Origin: an uncultured Ruminococcus sp.
GTDB taxonomy: Bacteria; Bacillota; Clostridia; Oscillospirales; Ruminococcaceae
Reading direction: 5' to 3'
Assembly (NCBI GenBank): GCA_900318825.1
Contig: ONMB01000012.1
Span: 27,081-91,080, forward strand
Length of the DNA stretch: 64,000 nt
Shown: piece after piece, positions 46,389 to 46,684 of the stretch
Numbering within the stretch: position 1 is the first letter of the stretch
Layout: the number at the start of each line of letters is the position of its first letter
Notes under the pieces: model-generated
Told to the model about the DNA's origin: nothing
The model's database searches: none
The model's input: the letters and a program-made list of their open reading frames with translations, nothing else
Position numbers and translations under genes: made by a program

Positions 46389-46422
46389 ATTATAGCCGTC
46401 CATTCTTAAAACAACCTTAAAT
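46389..46422 (-). promoter_or_regulatory. VTC operon promoter with TTTAAG direct repeats
   Basis: Minus strand ATTTAAG-GTTGT-TTTAAG-N10-TATAAT. Confidence 0.7.
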
Positions 46423-46639
46423 CGACTGTGCAATTATTGCGGAAGAATTGTTAAAGAATGGTGAGAATTGCGGTCAAGATCCCTTTGTGTAACAATAGTA
46501 TACTAAATATAATGAAATGTTATTTTTTATTATAATAGTACAGAGCGTAATATTTCTTTCTGTAATTTATAATATACCCTTTTTCAGCTTATGTCAAATA
46601 ATTCTGACGGATTTCGCAATTAACGACAAGTATTCCGCA

Positions 46640-46684
46640 ATTTAAGGGGAATTTAAGATTATTTTAAGAAAGCACTGCTATACT
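46640..46684 (+). promoter_or_regulatory. Promoter of dockerin-Cthe_2159 gene with three TTTAAG repeats
   Basis: TTTAAG at 46641, 46652, 46663 (11-bp period), then N10-TATACT. Confidence 0.7.

Follow-up and report, generated by a model that had tools for sequence, protein, structure and literature searches.

Two transcription units diverge from one intergenic region in the 64,000 nucleotides of Ruminococcus DNA analyzed here (the window), and both are preceded by the same short repeat, which raises the question of whether one regulator controls them and, if so, which one. The plus-strand gene (46743..50030) encodes a protein of 1095 aa that combines a signal-peptide-like N-terminus, two Cthe_2159 β-helix domains and a weak dockerin match, the E-value of which (2e-4) is just short of Pfam's cut-off. 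On the minus strand lies the VTC operon, in which the gene of a VTC-domain protein (45534..46328; PF09359, E=2e-41) is followed by that of a DUF4956 membrane protein (44810..45541; PF16316, E=1e-13) and then by that of a Cthe_2159-domain protein with a lipoprotein-like N-terminus (43191..44708; PF14262, E=6e-46).

Two Divergent Promoters with the Same Operator

Both promoters follow the pattern TTTAAG-N5-TTTAAG-N10-TAnnnT, in which the half-sites recur with a period of 11 bp: repeats, spacing and the 10-nt gap are the same on either side, just as a sequence-only reading of the window had stated. Upstream of the dockerin-Cthe_2159 gene, the operator TTTAAG-ATTAT-TTTAAG (46652..46668, plus strand; half-sites 46652-46657 and 46663-46668) precedes the −10 hexamer TATACT (46679..46684, plus strand), which is extended by a TG one base upstream (TG-n). 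The operator of the VTC operon, TTTAAG-GTTGT-TTTAAG (46405..46421, minus strand; half-sites 46421-46416 and 46410-46405), precedes the −10 hexamer TATAAT (46389..46394, minus strand). With 220 bases between them, the two operators point outward in opposite directions; consequently, each of the divergent promoters has an operator of its own. The third TTTAAG half-site that the same reading had placed upstream of the plus-strand pair is likewise present at a distance of 11 bp (46641..46646, plus strand), yet its counterpart in G014, the genome with the nearest ortholog, is out of register; among the box matches, 10 of 26 in dockerin loci have a perfect third TTAAG in front of them, compared with 1 of 31 in VTC loci.

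Upstream of the VTC operator, the minus strand additionally carries a separate sigma-70-like promoter, TTGACA-17-TATTAT (46569..46597; 11/12 matches), both hexamers of which are retained in G014. Because of this element, the VTC operon may possess a second, basal promoter that is independent of the activator. RNA-library contigs (four of 19 runs, at most three samples) cover both divergent units at low depth. Near the VTC gene such contigs end at 46349 and at 46372, the latter about 10 nt inside the predicted VTC transcript start, although contigs of this kind give neither start nor strand and are for this reason not taken as support; one contig crosses the VTC box to 46543, which is compatible with the upstream promoter or with DNA carry-over.

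Occurrence and Conservation of the Box

To judge the repeats against their genomic background, we counted boxes on both strands of the source genome (G000; 2.02 Mb, 84% complete). TTTAAG occurs 531 times, which predicts about 0.07 pairs for any given spacer length; six pairs were found at spacer 5, three of them from the window locus, versus zero or one at each of 15 other spacers. Perfect NTTAAG-N5-TTTAAG boxes combined with TAnnnT number four at gap 10; the other gaps between 4 and 19 have zero or one each. When a weight matrix derived from 187 sites in other genomes is applied, the window sites take the top two places with 37.9 and 37.0 bits; the next two sites reach 34.6 and 31.5 bits, after which the scores drop to 16.6, and the reversed genome contains no site above 12 bits. 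From the excess at spacer 5, the peak at gap 10 and the top matrix ranks it follows that the window repeats are not due to chance. A further TTTAAG-N5-TTTAAG pair with a degenerate third copy is located between divergent genes at C31:23485 (plus strand; L012) and is reversed relative to the gene of a 727-aa secreted-type protein; as it has no −10 hexamer at gap 10, we left it uncounted. No recognizable box was found at the CotH gene of the source genome.

The exact box pattern is present in 35 of the 36 genomes of the genus, with 133 hits (G000 included) versus nine in the reversed control, and two of the 24 genomes from other families have it as well; since relatives are not independent samples, these and the following counts describe persistence and are no statistical test. 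VTC orthologs occur in 33 of the 36 genus genomes. Out of the 30 best VTC loci, one was dropped for absent upstream DNA, and the remaining 29, G000 included, all have a perfect box at gap 10. Among the four other VTC loci of the genus, one has a perfect box, two have a box whose second half-site is perfect at gap 10 and whose first half is degenerate, and one (G013) is boxless; several VTC loci in other families also have no recognizable box. Dockerin-Cthe_2159 loci behave similarly: 28 of 30 have upstream DNA and 25 of these are boxed, three with one mismatch, while two of the three genomes that hold a boxless copy hold another, boxed one. Only G000 and G014 have the two genes back to back with both boxes between them in a single intergenic region, and in most other genomes the VTC and dockerin-Cthe_2159 genes reside on separate contigs; the shared box is therefore no by-product of adjacency. 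Conservation at mostly unlinked loci thus supports the earlier proposal that the dockerin protein and the VTC operon belong to one putative regulon, for which persistence of the motif at orthologous loci had been named as a check.

We were able to classify 123 of the 133 genus sites: 38 precede RNA-like units, 30 dockerin-Cthe_2159-type genes (some of them fused to a CotH kinase domain), 29 VTC genes and one a VTC paralog, and the others comprise seven LTD-Fn3 proteins, four lipoproteins with a metallo-β-lactamase (MBL) fold, two β-helix lipoproteins and 12 further cases.

A CiaR-Related Candidate Regulator

Activators of the OmpR family cover the −35 region, where they bind their half-sites in head-to-tail orientation, and recruit the polymerase. 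The sequence-only reading had assigned the repeats to an activator of this family encoded outside the window: G000 contains eight OmpR-type DNA-binding domains, none of them on the contig of the window, which agrees with action in trans. The operator itself is of a known type. The CiaR site of streptococci is described in the available text of PMC3091779 as NTTAAG-N5-TTTAAG with the −10 at distance ten, and the window sites share this consensus, the invariant G's and the distance to the −10. Moreover, the box is not restricted to streptococcal proteins, as a CiaR homolog from outside this genus, the BAS0540-BAS0541 system, is reported to bind NTTAAG-N5-TTTAAG in gel shifts, including a site upstream of its own gene; its regulon is different, and the targets named in the available portion of that report include neither a small RNA nor a VTC module (PMC4938410).

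Among the eight OmpR proteins, the response regulator encoded at C37:66484-67152 of G000 (minus strand; hereafter C37), whose gene is followed by that of a histidine kinase, is the best candidate in two respects: its helix NIEVYISFLRKKL matches the similar recognition helix of CiaR, VVEVYVSK[V/I]RKKL, at 8 of 13 residues, and it has the best BLAST score to the CiaR-type protein L361, which had been found via its helix. Of the 36 genus genomes, 35 encode a homolog of C37, which in 34 cases is 72-91% identical, and the one genome from which it is missing is 68% complete. G013 constitutes a single case: it has no exact box, no match to the RNA described below and only a 57% C37 homolog. In all 29 C37 loci with upstream DNA, the promoter carries TTTAAG-N5-TT(C/T/A)AA(T/G) before TATAAT, at a distance of 9 nt in 27 cases and of 10 nt in two. 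The motif thus also lies beside a two-component pair, as the earlier reading had suggested to look for; since this site is degenerate and mostly 9 rather than 10 nt from the −10, its effect on C37's own promoter could be weak or repressive. The kinase candidate (L045:4417-6474, minus strand) consists of HisKA and HATPase domains, two hydrophobic stretches and a long Pro/Thr-rich outer part that is succeeded by a Trp/Asn/Gly-rich low-complexity stretch.

The relatives of C37 point in the same direction. In other families, the best homolog of C37 is often encoded beside a VTC gene: the two genes are divergent in G045, G046 and G052, and in G040 and G057 they share a strand. A tree of 38 hand-picked regulators with one CiaR-type row places C37 in a group of 14 rows with a support of 89/83, which is not strong; ten of the other 13 members have a VTC gene no more than about 2 kb away, and several have boxes facing both ways, for example in the Paenibacillus record L309. 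The CiaR-type L361 belongs to the sister group. Because of this position and an identity to L361 of 39.6%, to be compared with the 77-85% that streptococcal CiaRs share with each other (PMC8186281), C37 is, judging by its sequence, CiaR-related but not a CiaR ortholog: it is assigned to a CiaR-related OmpR subfamily linked to VTC and would function in the manner of CiaR. In NCBIfam, in the PDB and in a large protein search it is named only generically. Taken together, box conservation, the site at C37's own promoter and the VTC linkage of its family argue for the proposed OmpR-family site acting in trans.

Two other assignments of the repeats have to be weighed against C37. The sequence-only reading had called them Pho-box-like, and with regard to geometry it was right: the 11-bp period and the 10-nt gap match the layout of the E. 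coli pho box. If they were Pho boxes for a PhoB/PhoP-type regulator, such as the OmpR protein of contig C27 with its presumably PhoB-like helix, the locus would be a phosphate-starvation unit for polyphosphate handling, which would suit the polyphosphate-polymerase-like nature of the VTC domain. The sequence of the repeats, however, is that of the CiaR box, and not one of the 123 classified genus sites is recognizably upstream of pst/pho genes, where the same reading had advised to search. Moreover, the only pstSCA operon found, in G002, has TTTACA repeats, which presumably resemble the B. subtilis PhoP box, and no TTTAAG box; G000, at its 84% completeness, yielded no PstS-family gene; and while three of five near-complete relatives have a PstS-family match (the operon being present in only one), the other two have none and yet contain six boxes each. 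As C37 in addition scores far below the PhoB cut-off, we regard a Pho regulon as scarcely credible. It is somewhat less improbable, but still very unlikely, that the activator is a factor absent from the incomplete assembly or the OmpR protein of contig C14. The helix of the latter matches that of CiaR at 7 of 13 positions, and its gene lies directly upstream of a TTTAAG-N5-TTTAAG site: three ABC-transporter-type promoters (G000 C14:25091, plus strand; C14:15864 and C20:1108, minus strand; L009, L010), one of them right behind the C14 regulator, share a layout of four TTAAG-like half-sites, repeat-5-repeat-6-repeat-5-repeat-10 nt-(−10). Owing to this proximity, TTAAG half-sites cannot be assigned to one protein exclusively. 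The box, however, occurs in 35 of 36 genus genomes and C14 homologs were found in nine; of the eight OmpR proteins, C14 also matches the CiaR-type protein least well by BLAST, and its own upstream region has no box. In our opinion, C14 and the four-half-site promoters likely form a separate regulon, and C37 remains the preferred reader of the window operators.

A Predicted Small RNA behind the Same Box

Two further perfect sites of G000, its third and fourth (C28:26431 and C33:29002), are not followed by an ORF. Instead, the C28 site is followed by a unit of about 80 nt with a short 5' hairpin, an unpaired CCCCCAAUUCCCC, a U-rich stretch and a terminator (z = −3.6). In order to avoid circularity with the box, we searched every GTDB representative genome for the RNA core by itself: of the 111 RNA loci retrieved in this manner, 107 are boxed (103 perfectly, four with one mismatch), and the −10 ends 6-8 nt before the core. 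The four boxless hits comprise two from unrelated organisms, which are likely due to chance, one cut by a contig end and one with a degenerate promoter. We aligned 48 short copies with a single terminator, picked by hand from about 140 hits of two overlapping searches; the alignment shows compensatory changes in eight of the nine pairs of the terminator. The 5' stem is paired to 95% yet nearly invariant and hence almost without covariation, partly because the search pattern had fixed it; in the copies L143, L188 and L189, insertions of 25-35 nt enlarge the 5' hairpin but leave its base and the C-rich core intact, which adds to the evidence for a real stem. The most conserved part is the unpaired C-rich tract, whose CCCCC and CCCCUU remain unpaired in the folds and would constitute an anti-Shine-Dalgarno (SD) tract.

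A covariance model built on the alignment detects the unit in 36 of 40 genus genomes. Among 140 family genomes (about one per genus) it matched six, three strongly and with a box, one partially and two weakly and without a box; with strong matches in only three of 140, the RNA seems to be narrow in its taxonomic range. The C33 unit and its G014 counterpart score 21.9 and 31.9 bits, values that are to be read beside a chance archaeal hit of 28.4 bits; because they share box, layout and terminator sequence, they are likely diverged copies. Rfam yields no hits in the window and three loci, and for the RNA unit its best hit by E-value has 21.6 bits versus a gathering score of 111.

Could the unit be a leader, an attenuator or a terminator remnant of neighboring genes behind a genuine box, and no trans-acting RNA? 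We give this a small but real chance. It would fit the sparse covariation of the 5' stem and the RNA-library data, in which no record of the four runs covers the unit at contig level and a single 151-nt record touches it while also spanning its promoter, although this gap in coverage counts neither for nor against an RNA. It would also fit the fact that neither duplex energies over the 1905 called start regions of G000, which gave generic anti-SD matches only and ranked the regulator 511, VTC 867 and dockerin 200, nor motif scans brought out a convincing target, and that the anti-start-codon feature of streptococcal csRNAs is absent. Against this stand the downstream neighbors, which vary among genomes and in G000 include a next gene with its own sigma-70-like promoter behind the terminator, the conservation of precisely the unpaired C-rich tract, and diverged second copies that have a box of their own (G000 C33, G014 and G007). 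The variable neighborhood in particular favors a free-standing RNA.

We therefore compared the predicted small RNA with the csRNAs (Ccn RNAs) of streptococci. As far as the latter are described in the available text of PMC3091779 and PMC11478796, both consist of a CiaR-type promoter and a terminator, with two stem-loops and an unpaired C/U-rich stretch between them, and both occur in several copies in some genomes; the length of about 80 nt is inside the csRNA range of 51-202 nt. In both regulons, some of the best-matching promoters precede small-RNA-like units. In contrast, the core CCCCCAAUUCCCCUU differs from the csRNA nonamer [A/C]UCCUAAA[A/C], no CAU is found 5' of the anti-SD tract as it is in csRNAs (PMC3091779), and the host is Ruminococcus rather than Streptococcus. 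For lack of the nonamer and the anti-AUG, we refer to the unit as a csRNA-like predicted small RNA and do not file it as a csRNA.

Proposed Mechanism and Significance

Considering these findings, the repeats are likely binding sites of C37, which in its phosphorylated form would activate both divergent promoters and the predicted small RNA. In the mechanism that we propose, the kinase, whose large Pro/Thr-rich outer part is flanked by two transmembrane stretches, would sense a cell-envelope or metal-ion condition and phosphorylate C37. Once phosphorylated, C37 would occupy positions of about −39 to −23, covering the −35 region, as a dimer in head-to-tail orientation, and would recruit sigma-A polymerase to promoters that have no good −35. 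The regulon thus induced would build or modify a surface layer, with VTC and DUF4956 acting inside and CotH kinase and Cthe_2159 β-helix proteins, some of them dockerin-borne, outside, while the C-rich RNA would base-pair with the ribosome-binding sites of other mRNAs and thereby repress them. The nature of the signal is the weakest step of this proposal: with low confidence, we prefer an envelope or metal-ion cue over phosphate by analogy to CiaRH, which has been linked to envelope stress (PMC8186281) and, by way of the Ccn RNAs, to zinc resistance (PMC11478796), and on account of the surface-protein make-up of the regulon.

The targets set this regulon apart from its streptococcal counterpart: VTC, DUF4956, Cthe_2159, CotH and dockerin proteins are not the CiaRH regulon as far as the sources describe it, and CiaRH has not been found in another genus according to a review (PMC8186281). 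Genes for VTC, DUF4956 and CotH have been described together before, in Gram-positive pel clusters (10.1101/768473) and in the NELoc-2 island of C. perfringens (PMC2879425). In these cases the genes are physically clustered and the available text of both reports describes no operator; in Ruminococcus they are scattered and united by the box. Our literature search, with subscription papers outside its scope, retrieved nothing that joins any two of CiaR, VTC domain and DUF4956, and nothing related on Ruminococcus, CiaR and cellulosome together. For the RNA core string, the only match was in an unrelated oomycete context, with bioRxiv supplements and most RNA-motif catalogues outside the scope, and the string is absent from the eight searched supplements of PMC8040213. 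Neither the trans arrangement with dockerin proteins nor the RNA unit was thus found in the literature searched.

On the whole, we consider it probable that cellulolytic rumen Ruminococcus harbors a csRNA-like circuit outside streptococci, in which a CiaR-related system drives a scattered surface regulon and a genus-wide repressor RNA of about 80 nt. The box defines a regulon from sequence alone in a fiber-degrading rumen genus, connects the VTC-DUF4956 pair, hitherto unexplained, with CotH kinases, Cthe_2159 β-helix proteins and dockerin-bearing proteins, the last of which are likely attached to the cellulosome, and names one specific candidate regulator. If this proves true, the coupling of small RNAs to the CiaR box, regarded as streptococcal in a 2021 review, would extend to clostridial-type bacteria, and the inducing signal, once found, would provide the first physiological handle on bacterial VTC proteins.

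Further Features of the Locus and the Putative Regulon

The VTC leader (46329..46372, minus strand) is unusual: its SD sequence AAAGGAG, the only good one of the VTC gene, is separated from the ATG by 37 nt that include an 8-bp hairpin, an architecture that resembles the split ribosome-binding site of phage T4 gene 25. This layout recurs in 24 of 29 genus VTC leaders with SD-ATG distances of 30-61 nt, variable hairpin sequences, about six unpaired bases flanking the hairpin on each side and often a TGA directly after the SD; the other five leaders have a normal spacing of 6-10 nt. The leader could be a translational control point. An upstream in-frame GTG (46364) was rejected as the VTC start, as it is 1 nt from the SD and its frame is not conserved.

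The window likely contains a weak third target: a degenerate box, TTCAAG-N5-TTCAAG-N10-TACAAT (29812..29844, plus strand), precedes the gene of an MBL-fold lipoprotein (29867-30727). It scores under 12 bits by the weight matrix, and homologs of this lipoprotein have perfect boxes in four other genomes.

Finally, perfect boxes in three genomes precede related hydrophobic peptides of 36-38 aa with Cys/Ala-rich cores (L126:1589-1699, plus strand; L130:1340-1447, minus strand; L165:574-687, plus strand); a Pfam scan of one of them gave no match. In three genomes as well, a second, unrelated box-driven RNA-like unit (L140:1370-1495, minus strand; L176; L180) with three hairpins and a terminator-like end is positioned upstream of an ECF sigma factor gene.
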